Of a DNA stretch of 32,613 nucleotides, positions 1 to 24,088 are shown one piece after another. The notes beneath the pieces are model-generated. The model was not told the origin of the DNA, did no database searches, and saw only the letters and a list, made by a program, of their open reading frames with translations. This DNA is from a phage: NCBI GenBank assembly GCA_033178465.1, contig GCA_033178465.1_4726.5; one strand, given 5' to 3'. Each line of letters opens with the position of its first letter. Positions within the stretch are counted from its first letter, which is position 1. Both the position numbers and the translations under genes were made by a program.

Positions 1-255
1 GACAATGACTTCTACACGGAAAACGTGAAAGTCTTTGGTTACAGCATGATGGGTGGTGTATTTAGCGCCGCGACGAACACGCTTAACTTCGGTACCCAAC
101 AACTGATTCAGTTCAGTATCGAAAAGGGTAAACTGAAAACAGCGTGGAAAGGTAGCGCTGCATACACGCCAACCGATCTTCTGCTTACTTCCGCAGAACA
201 GCATTTAAAAGCAAGTAAATCGGGTCGTGCATTTCTGGAGCAATTAGATCAATGA
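1..255 (+). CDS. hypothetical protein, probably 5'-truncated by the window edge
   Basis: Track ORF 25..255; the frame stays open back to position 1 with no stop; stop codon overlaps the ATG of the next gene (ATGA). Confidence 0.45.
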   Translation, partial: DNDFYTENVKVFGYSMMGGVFSAATNTLNFGTQQLIQFSIEKGKLKTAWKGSAAYTPTDLLLTSAEQHLKASKSGRAFLEQLDQ

Positions 256-809
256 CCCCACCCATCTTCTTTATGTCGGATACCCATTTTGATAGCGAGC
301 GTACATGGACGTATTCACGCCGTCCGTTCGCAAGCGTCGCCGATATGAACCAGCATATGCTGAAAGCCATCAACAATCTTCCAAAGAACAGTGTGTTATG
401 GCATTTAGGTGATTGGGGTAAGTTTGAGTTCGTGGAAGCCATTCGTTCTGATATCCAGGTTCAATTGGTAATGGGGAATTGGGACGAAGACGCATACAAA
501 GCAACAGGATTAAGCTTTGAAGCATGGCGTGATAAATTGCTCGGTATGGGGTTTGCTGCGGTTTATGAACACCCGCTGGTGTTGCCGATTAGCAACGACG
601 AATCCTACTGGCTATGCCATAAGCCCAGCGAAAGAAACCCAGGCTACTTTAATCTATTCGGTCATATTCATCGCTGTATGTTAGCGAAAGCCAACGGACT
701 TAATGTTGGCGTTGATCAGCATTTTTATGCACCGATTAGTTTAGACACCGTGCGTTTTTGGCGTAATGCGATAGAAAATCATTACGACGAAGAAGTATGG
801 ATGGAGTGA
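252..809 (+). CDS. calcineurin-like metallophosphoesterase (Ser/Thr phosphatase-like)
   Basis: Metallophosphoesterase motifs in order: MSDTHF (D-x-H), LGDWG (GD), GNWD, GHIHR (GH-x-H); ATG overlaps upstream stop. Confidence 0.8.
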   Translation: MTPPIFFMSDTHFDSERTWTYSRRPFASVADMNQHMLKAINNLPKNSVLWHLGDWGKFEFVEAIRSDIQVQLVMGNWDEDAYKATGLSFEAWRDKLLGMGFAAVYEHPLVLPISNDESYWLCHKPSERNPGYFNLFGHIHRCMLAKANGLNVGVDQHFYAPISLDTVRFWRNAIENHYDEEVWME

Positions 810-5211: not shown

Positions 5212-5549
5212 TAGACAGTATTGAACTTAATGAAGAGCAACCATTATCGGTTGTACAACAACTTTTAGCGCAGCATGAGCTTGTTTGGTCGGAAGAGCGT
5301 ACGCCATGTGAAGAATGTCGCTATAACCACGTTGTCGCTGAGACCGTTTTTGGTTCTTTAACTATCGAATGGAAAGGTTGGAAGGATTATACCAGCTACG
5401 ACTGCGATTTACCTTTCCCAGTCAACGAGGAGTTTCCGCACATCAACGCAGATAGTTTAGATGAAGCGAAAGCAAAAGTAAAAGCCTGGTACGACTACGT
5501 GATATTAGCTGGACTTGGTCTGGCTGCTAATAAACCAGAACTGAACTAA
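5208..5549 (+). CDS. hypothetical protein
   Basis: Track ORF; TTG start preceded by AAGGAGGG. Confidence 0.5.
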   Translation: MIDSIELNEEQPLSVVQQLLAQHELVWSEERTPCEECRYNHVVAETVFGSLTIEWKGWKDYTSYDCDLPFPVNEEFPHINADSLDEAKAKVKAWYDYVILAGLGLAANKPELN

Positions 5550-5574
5550 TTTGATTTCGATGAGGTATAATAAA

Positions 5575-6804
5575 ATGGCTTTAACCATCACAATCGACAA
5601 TAAAGAACTTAATCCCGCAGAAACATTAATGTACGCGGCAATTGCGACATTACCTAATCTTGACGCTGAAAAACTGTTTAAGGTACACGGCGATGATCTA
5701 CTCAACATTATCCATGATCAGATCGACCCGATAACACCAGAAGAAATAAAGGGGAACAAAGAACTCCACGAAGAAATTAAAAGAGGAGAGTATTATACGT
5801 ATCACGGTTTCATGACGTTATTTCAAGAAGATACGTCGCATCTTCACGAGATAACACTTCGACATTATCTGCGTTGCGCTATTTACCGACTGATGAATCA
5901 TCGTGAAGAAACACATAAAGCGCTGGCCCAATCGTTCCAGGAACATATTTTTGAGGCTCCATACAAACCGTTAGATATCTTTTATATCTTTTACTCAATT
6001 AGTTGTTGTGTCAACGACCAAGTAATGTTGCTAATTAAGCAGAACTACCGTGAACTTATACCTTTGCTAAGTAAATTGGGTATTGATTTAGTAGCAGAGA
6101 ATATAACATTCTCCCAGTTCATCCAAGAGACGTTCCTTGGTGCTAAGCTAGCACCACGATATGAGGGACGCTTTGATTTTTCAACGGTAGAGAAGCCCGC
6201 TTTTTGTCTGGATGTTGAGAATCTCAGTCTGGAAAAGAACGGGGTACTGCTGGAAATCGGTATGGTGTTCTTTGATCTAGCTAACCCAGAATCTGTTATT
6301 AACGGCCCACGTATAGATATCTTCCCTGACATTCATGGTCAAATCGCTGACGGTGGTCGTATCAGTGAATCAACAGTAGAATGGTGGCAAACCAAAGCAC
6401 CGAAGGAAGCGCGTGACTATTGTTTTCAACATTGTAAGGTGGTGGGTTATAAAGAAGCCATCACCGAAGTAAACGTGTTTGTTAACACAATTCGTGATGT
6501 GCTTACTGATTACTACGGTAAGGATACCTTCTATTATCTTGCTCGTGGTGAAACAGATTGGCCTCAATTAGAGCATTGGTTCCGTAAAGCAGGCTTTAAG
6601 CCAGTTTGTCGTTATAACCAGGTTCAGGATATTCGTTCGATGATTGCCGCGTATCAAGACAAACCGGTATCCATCTTAGGCACCAAAGAGTATCCAGATA
6701 TGGGTATTCCGTTGATCCGTCATACCGCTATCGGTGACGCGATCATGGATGCGTATGACGTTGCGATGGCGCGAAGCATGGCGGTGTCTAAGCTTTTGAA
6801 GTGA
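5575..6804 (+). CDS. DEDDh-type (DnaQ-like) 3'-5' exonuclease domain protein with N-terminal extension of unknown function
   Basis: Track ORF 5551..6804 trimmed to the ATG at 5575 after GAGGT; C-terminal half has Exo I-like FCLDVEN (D-x-E) and Exo III-like HTAIGDAIMDAYD (H-x4-D). Confidence 0.6.
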   Translation: MALTITIDNKELNPAETLMYAAIATLPNLDAEKLFKVHGDDLLNIIHDQIDPITPEEIKGNKELHEEIKRGEYYTYHGFMTLFQEDTSHLHEITLRHYLRCAIYRLMNHREETHKALAQSFQEHIFEAPYKPLDIFYIFYSISCCVNDQVMLLIKQNYRELIPLLSKLGIDLVAENITFSQFIQETFLGAKLAPRYEGRFDFSTVEKPAFCLDVENLSLEKNGVLLEIGMVFFDLANPESVINGPRIDIFPDIHGQIADGGRISESTVEWWQTKAPKEARDYCFQHCKVVGYKEAITEVNVFVNTIRDVLTDYYGKDTFYYLARGETDWPQLEHWFRKAGFKPVCRYNQVQDIRSMIAAYQDKPVSILGTKEYPDMGIPLIRHTAIGDAIMDAYDVAMARSMAVSKLLK

Positions 6805-6855
6805 TAGCATCCTGCGCAATGAATATGACGATGATCGTTTATTAAAGGAAAGAAG

Positions 6856-7170
6856 ATGTCTGAAAAGCATATTGAGATTCTTGATGCAGCCATCGCTTCG
6901 AAAGATAGCGGTACATTCATCAAAGCGGTATTTGTAGAGCAGCGTAATAACCCAGCAACGCTGAATAAAATTCGTGATGCAATCGCATTCCGTCTTACCA
7001 AGTCAGATATTTCTGATGCGGATAAAACAACGATGCGTAAATTACGCGACGATCTTAATGCATACATCGCCCGTGGTTGTACAGATAAAACCGTTCGCGA
7101 GGTTCTCGATTCTAACGTGAAATACGAATCCGACTTCAAGAAGAACGGTTCAACACCGAAAACAGAATAA
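6856..7170 (+). CDS. hypothetical protein
   Basis: Track ORF; AAAGGA 7 nt upstream of ATG. Confidence 0.55.
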   Translation: MSEKHIEILDAAIASKDSGTFIKAVFVEQRNNPATLNKIRDAIAFRLTKSDISDADKTTMRKLRDDLNAYIARGCTDKTVREVLDSNVKYESDFKKNGSTPKTE

Positions 7171-7179
7171 CAGCATATT

Positions 7180-7211
7180 CCCTCCTCCAACCCGTAAGGG
7201 AAGGAGGAGGG
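7180..7211 (+). terminator. GC-rich stem-loop (CCCTCCTCC..CCC-GTAA-GGG..GGAGGAGGG) followed by TTATGTTCG; terminator-like or regulatory
   Basis: 9-bp outer stem, AA/AA internal loop, 3-bp inner stem with GNRA-type tetraloop, directly after the stop at 7170. Confidence 0.4.
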
Positions 7212-7533: not shown

Positions 7534-7607
7534 AACATTACCAAAATAGACTATCTAATGAGGTGAAATTCCTCAATACTACTACTAGGACTACTAAGGA
7601 ATAAAAC

Positions 7608-8141
7608 ATGAGTGTTATCGTAAAAGTAATGGGCAACTGCGATACTAGCGACCGTAACAATGCAAAACCGTTTACGTTGCATGTGGTGCCTGACCGTTTG
7701 ACAACTATCGAATTCAATCGTGATTCACTGGGTAGACCGACACTGGAGTTCGTCGCTCATGGTGATAAGGATCAACGATTTATCGATTACCCGGGCGGTA
7801 ACGTTTACGTGATGGACAACGGTAATACCATCGCAACGTATGCCTATTCCTGTGGTTTTGGGAAGGATGATGTTGACCGTATGTATGCAGACGTCCGTGC
7901 TACGACGTATGGGGAAGTGCTGGATGCAAGTGGTAAACTTGACGATAACCTCATTCGTGCGTTGTTGGAAATACGCTTAATCGATCGTGATATAAAACAA
8001 ACGCGTCACATCGAGTTTGTAAAATCAGACAATCCTAACTTTGTTAGTCACGTAAATCGTCTTTTACAAGAGTTGTTTACTGGTAAATTAACAGCATATT
8101 ACGCCGGTGCGAGCGGCAAAATCATCGCGATCGTTAAGTAG
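7608..8141 (+). CDS. hypothetical protein, paralog of 8227..8775
   Basis: AAGGA upstream; N-terminus ...NNAKPFTLHVVPDRLTTIEFNRD...YAYSCGF aligns with the next gene. Confidence 0.6.
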   Translation: MSVIVKVMGNCDTSDRNNAKPFTLHVVPDRLTTIEFNRDSLGRPTLEFVAHGDKDQRFIDYPGGNVYVMDNGNTIATYAYSCGFGKDDVDRMYADVRATTYGEVLDASGKLDDNLIRALLEIRLIDRDIKQTRHIEFVKSDNPNFVSHVNRLLQELFTGKLTAYYAGASGKIIAIVK

Positions 8142-8226
8142 TAATCCCTACGAGGGGGTGGATAATACCTCCTCAATTTGTTGTACTATCTATCATTTCT
8201 ATTATCTATTATCATGAGGTTCTATT

Positions 8227-8775
8227 ATGTCTATGTTCTTGAAAATGATGAGCGGTTACGATCTCCCTGATGAGAACAACGCAAAGCCTTGTACGATTCT
8301 ACCGCTTTCGGATAAATGTAAAATTGATTTTGGTCGCGACGAGTACGGCGCACCTGTTGTGACCGTCGCTTATGAAGACGGAACAGTCGAGAGTTATCAT
8401 CCCGAAGGGAATACTTACCTCACCGAAGACCGTCGCACGATTGCAGCTTATTCTTATTCTGAGTATGTGTCGCCTGGTCGTCGTATGACGGTAGAGTCTG
8501 CGATGAAAGACCTTAAGCACTACGATGAATACGTACAGTTCACAACCAATAGCCGGATCGTACATTTTCTATCCGTGTTGGCTGGTGTTCCTCGCGGGCA
8601 AAACATAACCCGTAAATGTCGTCTATCAGCTGACGATCGTATCGGAGCATCAGTCATCGATAAACTTAGCGAGTTTATCGTGGATATGGGCTATTGCTTC
8701 GTTGGTTATACCACGACAAATCCGATGGGTGATGAAGTTATTTACGTTCTCGAATTCGCTGTCCTTGTGAAATAA
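8227..8775 (+). CDS. hypothetical protein, paralog of 7608..8141
   Basis: N-terminus ...NNAKPCTILPLSDKCKIDFGRD...YSYSEY aligns with the upstream gene. Confidence 0.6.
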   Translation: MSMFLKMMSGYDLPDENNAKPCTILPLSDKCKIDFGRDEYGAPVVTVAYEDGTVESYHPEGNTYLTEDRRTIAAYSYSEYVSPGRRMTVESAMKDLKHYDEYVQFTTNSRIVHFLSVLAGVPRGQNITRKCRLSADDRIGASVIDKLSEFIVDMGYCFVGYTTTNPMGDEVIYVLEFAVLVK

Positions 8776-8786
8776 GTTGATTGATG

Positions 8787-8809
8787 AAGCCTCCCGTAAT
8801 GGGAGGCTT
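8787..8809 (+). terminator. rho-independent-like terminator (AAGCCTCCC-GTAAT-GGGAGGCTT) followed by TTTATGCCG
   Basis: 9-bp stem followed by T-rich CTTTTAT, 12 nt after the stop at 8775. Confidence 0.5.
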
Positions 8810-8940
8810 TTATGCCGCCTTATCCCGTCCATCAAAACTAACGGATTTTAAGAATTCTCTGAAGCCGGGAGAACCGACGTTGTAAGTAATTAGGGCGTCT
8901 CGACAAAACTCTATTTACTTTTACGACGAGGTGAACAACG

Positions 8941-9144
8941 ATGTTAACGAAGGAATCCAAGAAGAACATTGAAGCGTGGATTTTTGATGATGTGTCGTTG
9001 AATCTATCATTGGATCCGAAGGTTCGTGGTTTACAAGCCGATTTCGCGTATAACGTGTTACATGGTTGCCGCTACACGTTAAGCGATCCTAAATATCGTT
9101 ATAAATTTCAGGAACTACTTGAAACACTTAGAGGATTAAAATGA
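8941..9144 (+). CDS. hypothetical protein
   Basis: Track ORF; GAGGTG upstream of ATG; stop overlaps the thyA start. Confidence 0.5.
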
Positions 9145-10160
9145 AACAGTATTTGGACCTTTTGCAAGACATCATGGATAATGGTCGTGATAAAGCTGAT
9201 CGTACAGGCACCGGGACCCGTTCCGTATTCGGACGTCAGATGCGTTTTGACTTGAAGAAAGGATTCCCGCTGGTAACCACTAAGAAGATTCACCTTAAGA
9301 GCGTTATCCACGAACTGCTCTGGTTTCTTAATGGTGATACAAACGTTGCTTATCTTCAAGATAACGGTGTTCGTATCTGGAATGAGTGGGCTGACGAAGA
9401 AGGGAATCTAGGACCTATTTACGGCAAACAATGGCGGGAATGGATCGACTACAAAATGGTTGTTCCGCACGATACAGAACGTACTCGTGAGTTGATGCAA
9501 CGCGGCTATGAGTATTGCGGTGTTGTTGACGCCGGTATGGTCAAACATCTCTTGTATGTTAAACACCACGACCAAATCGCAAACGTGATGCGTCAGCTTA
9601 AAGAAGATCCTGATTCTCGACGGATCATCGTTAGCGCGTGGAACGTAGGCGATTTAGACGATATGCATCTCGCTCCGTGCCATTCATTTTATCAGTTCTA
9701 TACTCACGAACTCACGATCGATGAACGCGTTGATTATGTCCAGCGCAATGACGTACTAAGAACCCAGTGGGTTACGGATGATGTACGACACAGTGAAACA
9801 GAACTCTGGTTGAATGCGCATAACGTACCAACACGTGCATTATCCTGTCAGCTTTACCAGAGATCGTGCGACACGGTGCTTGGGAAACCGTTCAACATCG
9901 CCTCATACTCGTTGTTAACACACATGCTTGCCCAGCAGCTGAATATGGACGTTGGTGAGTTCGTGTGGACCGGTGGAGATTGTCACATCTATCACAACCA
10001 TTTCGAACAGGTTAAAGAACAACTCAGCCGTGAACCGTATCCGTTACCGAAGCTAACAATCGTACGTAAACCGGAAAGTATTACGGATTACCGTTACGAA
10101 GACTTTGTGTTCGTCGGATATCAATCACATCCGGCTATCAAGGCTAAGGTGGCGGTGTAA
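9141..10160 (+). CDS. thyA: thymidylate synthase
   Basis: Signature blocks [39 protein letters not shown] (catalytic Cys), [15 protein letters not shown]; two insertions relative to compact ThyA. Confidence 0.92.
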
Positions 10161-12775: not shown

Positions 12776-13084
12776 ATGATGAGAATGAACGAAAACAATT
12801 GTGAACTGGTTCCAGAAGAAAGGTTGGTTGCGATTCGTGACTACTTCTTGGCTGATGAAGAAAACAAACCATTCTTCGTCTTTTCGGATAATAAACATCA
12901 AGCAACCTGTGAACTCGCTGCAGCCGAGGGTATGCGTGATGCGTTAGTATATCGACTGGAAGCGAAACGATCCGTTGTATCAGACACGACAGAGATCGAT
13001 AATGCAATCAGGGTAGTCGATCGTCGGTATGACGAGTTACTTACCGAATACGAGAACGGATCGCAAACGGTAATTCTTCACTAA
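12776..13084 (+). CDS. hypothetical protein
   Basis: Track ORF on the common coding strand. Confidence 0.5.
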   Translation: MMRMNENNCELVPEERLVAIRDYFLADEENKPFFVFSDNKHQATCELAAAEGMRDALVYRLEAKRSVVSDTTEIDNAIRVVDRRYDELLTEYENGSQTVILH

Positions 13085-17348: not shown

Positions 17349-20012
<2,664 letters not shown>

Positions 20013-20492: not shown

Positions 20493-20505
20493 GAGAAATC
20501 TCGTT

Positions 20506-21009
20506 GTGAAACCTCCAGTACGACGATGGAATCGTAAGGATGATGAACAGTTGCTGGAATTGTATTATCGTCACCCGAAATTAAAAATCCGTGAAATCGC
20601 AGAAATCATGGAAACAACGTACGGTGCAATTAAATCGAGGTTGATATACTTAAATGTCGAACGTCGTAAACCACATAAACGTTTCAGTGTCGATGAGTTG
20701 GAATATATCAGAGCACACTGCAAACACAAAAGTTACAAACAACTCGCACGCGATTTAAACAGGGATCCAAACAGTATTAGAACGATAGCACACCGTCATG
20801 GCTTCAAGCGGTTAAGCGAGGATGATACTAAGATCTTCATAGCCTTCGTTGATACATTGTTAGAAGAAACACAGGACTGGCACCACATTGCTGAACGGGT
20901 TAATGCGCATTTCGGTATAACACGTACGAAGCAGGCTGTCTATCAGCGTTGGTGGCATCATAGAAAGAAAAGAGGGATACAAGATGGGACGATCTCAACC
21001 GTGGCGTGA
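20506..21009 (+). CDS. Myb/SANT-like HTH repeat protein, array member 3
   Basis: GTG start 9 nt after AGGAGA; RWNRKDDEQLLELY...EIAEIMETTYGAIKSRL; C-terminal VYQRWWHHRKKRG. Confidence 0.6.
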   Translation: MKPPVRRWNRKDDEQLLELYYRHPKLKIREIAEIMETTYGAIKSRLIYLNVERRKPHKRFSVDELEYIRAHCKHKSYKQLARDLNRDPNSIRTIAHRHGFKRLSEDDTKIFIAFVDTLLEETQDWHHIAERVNAHFGITRTKQAVYQRWWHHRKKRGIQDGTISTVA

Positions 21010-23394: not shown

Positions 23395-23413
23395 CCCTCC
23401 CGACATGGGAGGG
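23395..23413 (+). terminator. GC stem-loop (CCCTCCC-GACAT-GGGAGGG) followed by CTTATGCCG; terminator-like or regulatory
   Basis: 7-bp stem 6 nt after the stop at 23389; same architecture as the hairpins at 819 and 30254. Confidence 0.4.
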
Positions 23414-23437
23414 CTTATGCCGATAAAAGGAAACAAA

Positions 23438-24088
23438 ATGAACGATGTTATCGCATTACTCACGCAAGGCGAAACCAAAATGCCGTTGCCGTACCAGCAG
23501 CTTGCTGCTATCTTAGAACCGATGACGCACCATCAACAATGGATTGTCCGTGAAGAATATACCCAACACGTCGGATGGTCGTTGTTAACCATGGATACCG
23601 CGCTCCAGTTAGCAAACATCTGTTACGGGCGACGTGTTGCTGACCTGGGTTGTGGGACAGGTTACCTGACCTATGTGTTGCGTAAACTTGGTGTTGAGGA
23701 CATTACCGCTTACGATACGGAATTACATCCCCACCCGTTTATCGAGGACATTCAGCAAGCCGACTACACAAACATCGATCTTTCACAGTACGACGTTATT
23801 CTACTGTCATGGCCACCTTACGACGAACCACAAGCTGCATTGGTTGCCGCACGTATCCAACCTCACCAGCTTTTGGTCTATCAGGGTGAAGGATACGGAG
23901 GCTGCACTGGAGATGACACCTTCCATTCGATGCTTCGTTCGGATTTTGCCTCTGTGGAAGAATTTACTGTGAACTTAAATGCACGCCATTTGAACTTTTA
24001 CGGTATATACGACTCATGGGAGGTTTATCGCAAGCAATCAGAATTTACAAAACAAAAGGATGATTTGGAAGATATGCGTCATGAATGA
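23438..24088 (+). CDS. class I SAM-dependent methyltransferase, small amino-methyltransferase-like with PPY motif
   Basis: Track ORF 23405 trimmed to the ATG at 23438 after AAAGGA; motif I VADLGCGTGYL, acidic motif II ITAYDTE, motif IV LLSWPPY. Confidence 0.75.
   Translation: MNDVIALLTQGETKMPLPYQQLAAILEPMTHHQQWIVREEYTQHVGWSLLTMDTALQLANICYGRRVADLGCGTGYLTYVLRKLGVEDITAYDTELHPHPFIEDIQQADYTNIDLSQYDVILLSWPPYDEPQAALVAARIQPHQLLVYQGEGYGGCTGDDTFHSMLRSDFASVEEFTVNLNARHLNFYGIYDSWEVYRKQSEFTKQKDDLEDMRHE

Follow-up and report, generated by a model that had tools for sequence, protein, structure and literature searches.

The gene at positions 5575-6804 (+ strand) of a 32,613-nt stretch of phage DNA (GenBank assembly GCA_033178465.1, contig GCA_033178465.1_4726.5; "the window" below denotes this whole stretch) encodes a 409-amino-acid (aa) protein in which a DEDDh 3'-5' exonuclease of the DexA/Rv2179c family is fused to an N-terminal domain of about 200 residues found only in Goslar-like phages. 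Comparison with related phages indicates that this N-terminal domain (N-domain) is a fast-evolving cassette that phages have exchanged across backbones through recombination at the domain boundary.

The window showed 94-96% DNA identity to Escherichia phage vB_EcoM_Goslar (NC_048170 / MK327938), a 237-kb nucleus-forming jumbo phage of E. coli, in agreement with the phage source assumed in an earlier note on this DNA. Its gene order is collinear with Goslar from gp157 to about gp120. The program-made open reading frame (ORF) spans 5551-6804 (+) and opens at a TTG; the ATG at 5575 is the counterpart of the annotated Goslar gp147 start and yields the 409-aa product. This start, preceded by a Shine-Dalgarno-like GAGG, is the one chosen in the earlier note and proved right. 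The product is a homologue of Goslar gp147 (YP_009820832 / QBO63940; 92.7% aa identity), and an identical protein is present in NCBI as ELT4197493.1, "3'-5' exoribonuclease [Escherichia coli]", the name that gp147 carries in RefSeq and that PGAP also assigns. The window thus represents a whole phage contig within a bacterial (E. coli) assembly. Sibling proteins are on record in both E. coli and Salmonella assemblies, which suggests that Goslar-like phages get carried along when bacterial isolates are sequenced. Our literature search found no paper discussing Goslar gp147.

A DexA-family exonuclease and its fusion partner

Profile comparisons identify the C-terminal half as a bona fide DEDDh 3'-5' exonuclease of the DexA/Rv2179c family with an intact catalytic set, as the earlier note had proposed from DnaQ-like motifs. 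Pfam PF16473 (Rv2179c-like 3'-5' exoribonuclease domain) matched residues 211-393 with a score of 57.1 bits (E 2.5e-15), well above the gathering cut-off of 27 bits, and the match covered model positions 4-170 of 177 (167/177). Goslar gp147 is likewise annotated from PF16473, the former DUF5051 with the Mycobacterium tuberculosis exoribonuclease Rv2179c as its founding member. The 409-aa protein also matched PHROG 255 'exonuclease' (E 4.6e-28), and phage homologues of the domain carry DexA or exonuclease A annotations. A single-sequence search of the PDB with phmmer gave no more than a weak match to 8KEL (E 0.22). We then built a profile from an alignment, A3, of the window domain with its homologues from P0024, Salmonella phage SA002, Xanthomonas phage X1, and Erwinia phage Special G. 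This profile matched 8KEL over chain residues 4-209 of 227 with an E value of 4.8e-20; besides 8KEL, no solved chain scored below E 0.07, and no ribonuclease chain appeared even at E 10.

The 8KEL structure is that of T4 DexA, in which D7, D119, H186, and D191 are among the key catalytic residues (PMC12153337). In the hidden Markov model (HMM) alignment, the window protein has D213, D328, H383, and D388 at these four positions and E215 at that of DexA E9. All five positions are invariant throughout A3, the members of which go down to 22% identity. The motifs quoted in the earlier note, FCLDVEN (Exo I) and HTAIGDAIMDAYD (Exo III), are both present and do superimpose on DEDDh catalytic residues, which identifies the domain as a DEDDh exonuclease; Exo III reads HTAIGD, i.e., the H-x4-D arrangement of the 'h' subtype. 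By homology to 8KEL, we predict an RNase H-like fold that would place the five residues around two metal ions. The AlphaFold2 (AF2) model of the full protein was too poor to interpret over this half, with a predicted local distance difference test (pLDDT) score of 25-49. This half of the protein is ordinary and already publicly annotated.

The N-terminal ~200 residues form a separate domain confined to Goslar-like phages. The earlier note had recognized no motif there, and searches of Pfam, NCBIfam, PHROGs, PADLOC, and PDB sequences indeed yielded no match for this domain, even at E values up to 1-10. We searched 1.84 billion representative proteins (one per 50%-identity cluster of ~15 billion proteins) with an HMM of the N-domain and retrieved three Goslar-like proteins and one RHS-type protein, hence no credible homologue outside Goslar-like phages. 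The latter, a 2537-aa RHS-type repeat protein (E 3.8e-8), was rejected, as its score sums weak matches across 11 identical repeats. Of the two checks recommended in the earlier note, the domain search gave no matches, and structure prediction gave models that are uninterpretable, as the sequences of this family hardly vary. Their mean pLDDT was 44.6 for the full protein (18-sequence alignment) and 51.7 for the N-domain alone (10-sequence alignment). The low-confidence N-domain model is mostly helical, with a short N-terminal beta-hairpin followed by ~10 helices. Searching for similar folds with so poor a model brought back only Goslar's own protein from BFVD and nothing below E 1.9 from the PDB, and both results are meaningless at such model quality. 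The N-domain is acidic (isoelectric point, 5.4 in the window and 4.6-5.4 in the other allele class described below; net charge, -6 to -16), which speaks weakly against nucleic-acid binding. The guanine-plus-cytosine (GC) content of its coding segment is 39.0%, versus 45.3% for the exonuclease segment.

With its 409 aa and an unrelated N-domain of 200 aa, the protein departs from the single-domain architecture (~180-250 aa) of the PF16473 family, the Pfam model of which spans only its C-terminal half. Homologues in other phages stand alone at 211-250 aa (SA002, X1, Special G gp67, RAY gp64, and P0024). We considered whether the N-domain derives from the upstream gene of such phages, an origin that we rejected after comparing it with Special G gp66 and a partial ORF on contig L008 (hhalign probability, about 1% or less). 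Since the relatives stand alone and their upstream ORFs are unrelated to the N-domain, the fusion is specific to Goslar-like phages. Among the stand-alone exonucleases of jumbo phages, several of them chimalliviruses, RAY gp064 / Special G gp67, SA002 MGA_54, and P0024 share the Pfam family with the window protein and, as in the window, sit a few genes upstream of thymidylate synthase, but they are 220-250 aa long and lack the N-domain; RAY gp064 has been reported to be cytoplasmic.

Outside Goslar-like phages, P0024 comes closest, sharing 47% identity with the exonuclease domain. Its contig (L008, 341-6171) also holds an AcrVA2-like gene as well as a thymidylate synthase gene that a homing endonuclease of the GIY-YIG/I-TevI-like type interrupts. 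The split gene recalls the T4 td intron, the homing of which uses DexA.

T4 DexA itself resembles the gp147-type protein in being phage encoded, nonessential, and located among nucleotide-metabolism genes. The window exonuclease domain aligns with nearly the whole DexA chain, and the catalytic Asp, Glu, Asp, His, and Asp match. The two proteins differ in that DexA is a stand-alone enzyme of 227 aa, whereas the ~200-aa N-domain of the window protein has no DexA counterpart. Their settings differ as well, since a Goslar-like phage hides its DNA in a protein nucleus, whereas T4 relies on DNA modification. DexA also displays a temperature-driven switch between dimer and tetramer and recognizes 5-hydroxymethylcytosine.

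The N-terminal domain as an exchangeable cassette

A protein search retrieved 24 clusters of relatives, which fell into class A (409 aa like the window protein; 386 member sequences), class B (433-441 aa; 206 member sequences), and one stand-alone relative, with no third allele class. A scan of IMG/VR found two Goslar-like loci. The exonuclease halves of classes A and B are ~90% identical, whereas the N-terminal halves are only ~23% identical. The latter are nonetheless collinear over their full length (hhalign E 1.8e-5, blastp E 2e-4), with ~16 positions invariant across both classes. Because of this collinearity, we regard the two classes as very old alleles of one domain rather than as unrelated insertions.

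In DNA alignments, the window matches the class-B contigs L002 (93%) and L004 (82%) up to position 5518/5540 and again from 6185, with nothing between. We compared eight phages over 5 kb around the gene and found a single trough of identity, at ~5550-6185. For instance, nucleotide identity between the window and the class-B contig L013 is 97% over the 3.5 kb upstream, drops to 44% in the N-segment, and rises again to 90% in the exonuclease segment. The allele class is independent of the phage backbone: L013 is as near to the window as the class-A phages are, and the class-B contigs L004 and L014 are the farthest. The N-segment is also the most divergent part inside each class, with 83-88% identity versus 91-98% elsewhere within class A, and 64-77% versus 80-93% elsewhere within class B.

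We estimated substitution rates by the Nei-Gojobori method. The ratio of nonsynonymous to synonymous substitution rates (dN/dS) stayed below 1 in every pair, ranging from 0.27 to 0.51 in the N-domain and from 0.03 to 0.26 in the exonuclease domain. The nonsynonymous rate of the N-domain was 3-6 times that of the exonuclease domain. In several pairs, the synonymous rate itself was higher in the N-segment than in the C-segment (0.87 versus 0.15 between L004 and L014, 0.28 versus 0.07 between the window and L015). Unequal synonymous divergence inside one gene implies that the two segments have unequal histories and therefore that recombination occurred at the domain boundary, beyond any faster evolution of the protein. 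Together, these comparisons characterize the N-domain as a fast-evolving cassette that recombination at the domain boundary exchanges between phage backbones. Mosaic cassettes of phages, such as tail-fibre tips and anti-defence loci, likewise present old, unalignable alleles within near-identical flanks, independently of the backbone. Those cassettes lie in accessory and host-interaction genes, whereas this one is a domain of a nuclease, neither a receptor-binding nor a known anti-defence protein.

Mutagenesis by a diversity-generating retroelement was considered for the N-segment and is not indicated: the 32.6-kb window contains no template repeat or paralogue (a reverse transcriptase was not searched for). 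Looking for a second copy of the N-segment in the window, we obtained only 13-nt chance matches with blastn-short and no paralogue with tblastn, and the sequence variation is spread over its whole 600 bp.

A stretch of 73 bp, comprising the ribosome-binding site and the first 16 codons of the class-A allele, recurs as an inverted copy with 89% identity at 20504-20576 (minus strand) of L002, inside another gene. This gene is the homologue of the window ORF at 12776-13084 (the corresponding site is at window positions 12973-12991), to which the copy adds an in-frame hydrophobic insert of 24 aa, so that the product has 125 aa rather than the 102 aa seen in the window. At least 8 independent contigs carry this longer form, which is thus not an assembly error.

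Natural loss of the nuclease half and the gene neighbourhood

By blastn of the window against L016, a contig of the Goslar-like lineage P0010, we detected a deletion of 305 bp. At this locus (4001-5083 of L016), the deletion removes residues ~314 to the end, i.e., Exo II, Exo III, and the stop codon. This form occurs on 3 contigs of >200 kb, and the lineage keeps the N-domain ORF, with a C-terminus that is altered in the alignment. The natural deletion of motifs II and III indicates that the nuclease activity is not essential in nature. As the stop codon is lost, the L016 ORF runs into the start of the gene downstream, described below as a latch-protein gene.

All genes of the neighbourhood lie on the + strand (Table 1). 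The exonuclease gene is preceded by a metallophosphoesterase gene, just upstream of which Goslar has a gene for an HD-domain hydrolase, and it is followed, 2.3 kb downstream, by a thymidylate synthase gene. SA002, Special G/RAY, and the metagenomic contig L008 share the order exonuclease to ThyA. Further downstream are genes for a DNA ligase and a weakly methyltransferase-like protein, and the neighbourhood also holds many small ORFs without family matches.

The 104-aa gene directly downstream corresponds by position to Goslar gp146, which has been described as a capsid 'latch' protein that stabilizes the penton of the major capsid protein (preprint, bioRxiv 10.64898/2026.04.21.720040). This equivalence presumes that the preprint follows the GenBank gene numbers, and it would set a structural gene among nucleotide-metabolism genes and genes without assigned function. 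The region farther downstream (~7583-9132) is plastic among L002, L004, L013, L015, and L016, in which genes of ~200 aa, 181 aa, and 293 aa (DUF7448) come and go. In the DNA compared around the locus, this gene content did not track allele class A or B. Two stretches of ~30 bp, at 2247-2276 and 7180-7210, match the opposite strand of Goslar at their own positions and are therefore palindromes; situated in the intergenic gaps after the ORFs that end at 2239 and 7170, they are probably terminator hairpins.

Table 1. Positions in the window of the two-domain gene, its parts, and neighbouring genes
Feature	Position	Strand	Basis
Complete coding sequence, two-domain protein, 409 aa + stop	5575..6804	+	ORF list; annotated coding sequence in Goslar
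Shine-Dalgarno-like GAGG, 9 nt 5' of ATG 5575	5562..5565	+	Read from sequence
N-terminal domain, residues 1-~203/204, class-A allele	5575..6184	+	No family matches; restricted to Goslar-like phages
DexA/Rv2179c-family DEDDh 3'-5' exonuclease domain, residues ~204-409	6185..6801	+	PF16473, PHROG 255, profile versus 8KEL
Exo I motif FCLDVEN, residues 210-216 (D213, E215; D-x-E)	6202..6222	+	Invariant in alignments A1 and A3; aligns with DexA D7/E9
Exo II motif ARGETDWPQL (D328)	6541..6570	+	D328 invariant; aligns with DexA D119
Exo III motif HTAIGDAIMDAYD, residues 383-395 (H383, D388)	6721..6759	+	Invariant; aligns with DexA H186/D191
Segment deleted in lineage P0010 / L016, 305 bp	6513..6817	+	blastn of window versus L016
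73-bp stretch, ribosome-binding site and first 16 codons of class-A allele	5549..5621	+	Inverted copy elsewhere
Metallophosphoesterase	252-809	+	
104-aa gene directly downstream, by position Goslar gp146	6856-7170	+	
Thymidylate synthase, single uninterrupted 339-aa match	9141-10160	+	Pfam
NAD-dependent DNA ligase, full length (adenylation, OB, Zn, HhH, BRCT)	17630-19699	+	
Weak methyltransferase-like ORF	23405-24088	+	

Possible roles of the two-domain protein

We tentatively favor, with somewhat less than even confidence, an accessory, cytoplasmic, DexA-like nuclease for the salvage of host DNA, in which the N-domain would be a protein module for partner binding or specificity. The substrate, location, salvage role, and N-domain function that we infer are as follows. 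The enzyme would be located in the host cytoplasm and would trim the 3' ends of host DNA fragments (possibly of RNA) to mononucleotides, which could feed the nearby HD hydrolase, metallophosphoesterase, and thymidylate synthase. Since the phage DNA would be safe within the phage nucleus, such a nuclease would have no need for self/non-self discrimination. The N-domain would not bind nucleic acids but would engage a protein partner and so tether or regulate the nuclease, and this partner would differ between hosts or phages, from which the polymorphism of the domain would follow. In T4, DexA scavenges host DNA for mononucleotides and has a second role in intron homing (PMC12153337). In Goslar-infected cells, most of the host chromosome is degraded by 60 min after infection (PMC9891218). 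RAY gp064, which belongs to PF16473 (E 1.2e-13), was seen in the cytoplasm (PMC10299810). The suggestion of the earlier note that the extension gives substrate or partner specificity is plausible, and the hypervariability of the cassette strengthens it.

Several points weigh against this salvage role. RAY does not degrade the host chromosome despite its family member (PMC12908238), so possession of a PF16473 protein is not sufficient for host-DNA degradation. The sequence leaves the choice between a DNA and an RNA substrate undecided, and PF16473 takes its name from an exoribonuclease. We extrapolate the cytoplasmic location from a stand-alone homologue with ~25% identity and no N-domain, a domain that could alter localization. 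The protein-interaction role of the N-domain is suggested by its charge and evolutionary pattern only, at a pLDDT of 45-52, and a raised dN/dS that stays below 1 is also compatible with a simple relaxation of constraint. Finally, our literature search returned no biochemical, localization, or genetic data for the 409-aa protein or Goslar gp147.

The protein might instead be an exoribonuclease that acts in the cytoplasm on host mRNA, tRNA, or small RNA, or on exported phage transcripts, with the N-domain directing it to an RNA-protein complex. We consider this rather unlikely, even though PF16473 is named after M. tuberculosis Rv2179c, RefSeq and PGAP use the name "3'-5' exoribonuclease", and the cytoplasm of a cell infected by a nucleus-forming phage, where the RAY member is found (PMC10299810), holds RNA and not phage DNA. 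The founder of the family is a mycobacterial RNase, while the nearest solved relative of the window domain, and the only solved match, is the DNA exonuclease T4 DexA. The phage homologues are labeled after DexA or exonuclease A, and the neighbouring genes belong to deoxynucleoside triphosphate and DNA metabolism. In addition, the database name was copied from the Pfam label, with no test behind it. Slightly less probable still is a nuclease engaged in an arms race, the N-domain of which would recognize a variable defence component or a molecule of a rival phage, or would diversify to escape host sensing; in the former version, the exonuclease could be delivered to multicopy single-stranded DNA, to guide or signalling oligonucleotides, or to the DNA of a competitor. 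A role in counter-defence or competition would best account for the polymorphism: the variable segment has sharp bounds, old classes are shuffled between backbones, and the nonsynonymous rate is raised in the N-domain only. The gene is also accessory and can be lost. The N-domain is acidic and without homologues elsewhere, traits that are frequent among phage anti-defence proteins. Such a role nevertheless has no direct support. Neither the full protein nor the N-domain had a PADLOC match at E values up to 1, dN/dS did not reach 1 in any pair, no neighbouring gene in the window is related to defence, and a literature search on phage DEDDh anti-defence nucleases returned nothing relevant. DEDDh exonucleases require a free 3' end, so that cyclic second messengers are poor candidate substrates for them. 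The degradation of second messengers, which the earlier note itself called speculative, gained nothing from our analysis, as no PADLOC or anti-defence match was found and the context is one of nucleotide and DNA metabolism.

In another possible role, for recombination or homing, the exonuclease would enter the phage nucleus and act on phage DNA there, and the N-domain would be a co-evolving determinant of selective import or of docking to the replication or recombination machinery. T4 DexA is involved in intron homing on phage DNA (PMC12153337), and the thymidylate synthase gene of L008 is split by a GIY-YIG homing endonuclease near the exonuclease gene. Stand-alone members are cytoplasmic (PMC10299810), so an added domain could change the address of the enzyme, and import selectivity varies among related chimalliviruses (PMC12908238). 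We nonetheless judge this improbable, because an import signal is neither known nor detectable, a nonspecific exonuclease in the nucleus would endanger phage DNA, and the thymidylate synthase gene of the window is uninterrupted. We find it more improbable again that the N-region is nonfunctional, either as what is left of an upstream gene that was fused by accident and is now decaying or as a spacer under weak constraint, with only the exonuclease half being of consequence. The lack of homologues or motifs, the low AF2 confidence, the lower GC content (39% versus 45%), and the raised dN/dS would all fit such a region. However, the full-length variants sampled from both classes preserve the region in an intact, collinear frame even at saturation-level divergence, its dN/dS of 0.27-0.51 still reflects purifying selection, and ~16 positions do not vary across classes. 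Moreover, it does not resemble the ORFs that lie upstream of stand-alone exonucleases in other phages, and the deletion lineage loses the nuclease half but retains the N-domain ORF.

Our analysis thus adds to the annotation of this family that one domain of an otherwise conserved phage nuclease is an exchangeable, fast-evolving cassette with two ancient classes. Such patterns usually mark a surface in contact with something variable, be it a host factor, an immune sensor, or a competing phage, and the N-domain therefore offers a concrete handle on an interaction in a model E. coli chimallivirus. It is conceivable, if doubtful, that the N-domain is a polymorphic module for targeting or evasion, which would dock the exonuclease onto a variable component of host immunity or the nucleic acid of a rival phage, or an address tag for nuclear import that co-evolves with the import machinery, with balancing selection across hosts or competitors holding the two classes. 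Should the partner prove to be a defence protein or the system for nuclear import, the finding would bear on how nucleases are sorted between cytoplasm and nucleus; otherwise, the protein would be a routine salvage exonuclease with a lineage-specific appendage. If the N-domain does serve in targeting, evasion, or import, gp147 and its relatives would be the first chimallivirus nucleases in which the specificity domain is exchangeable.

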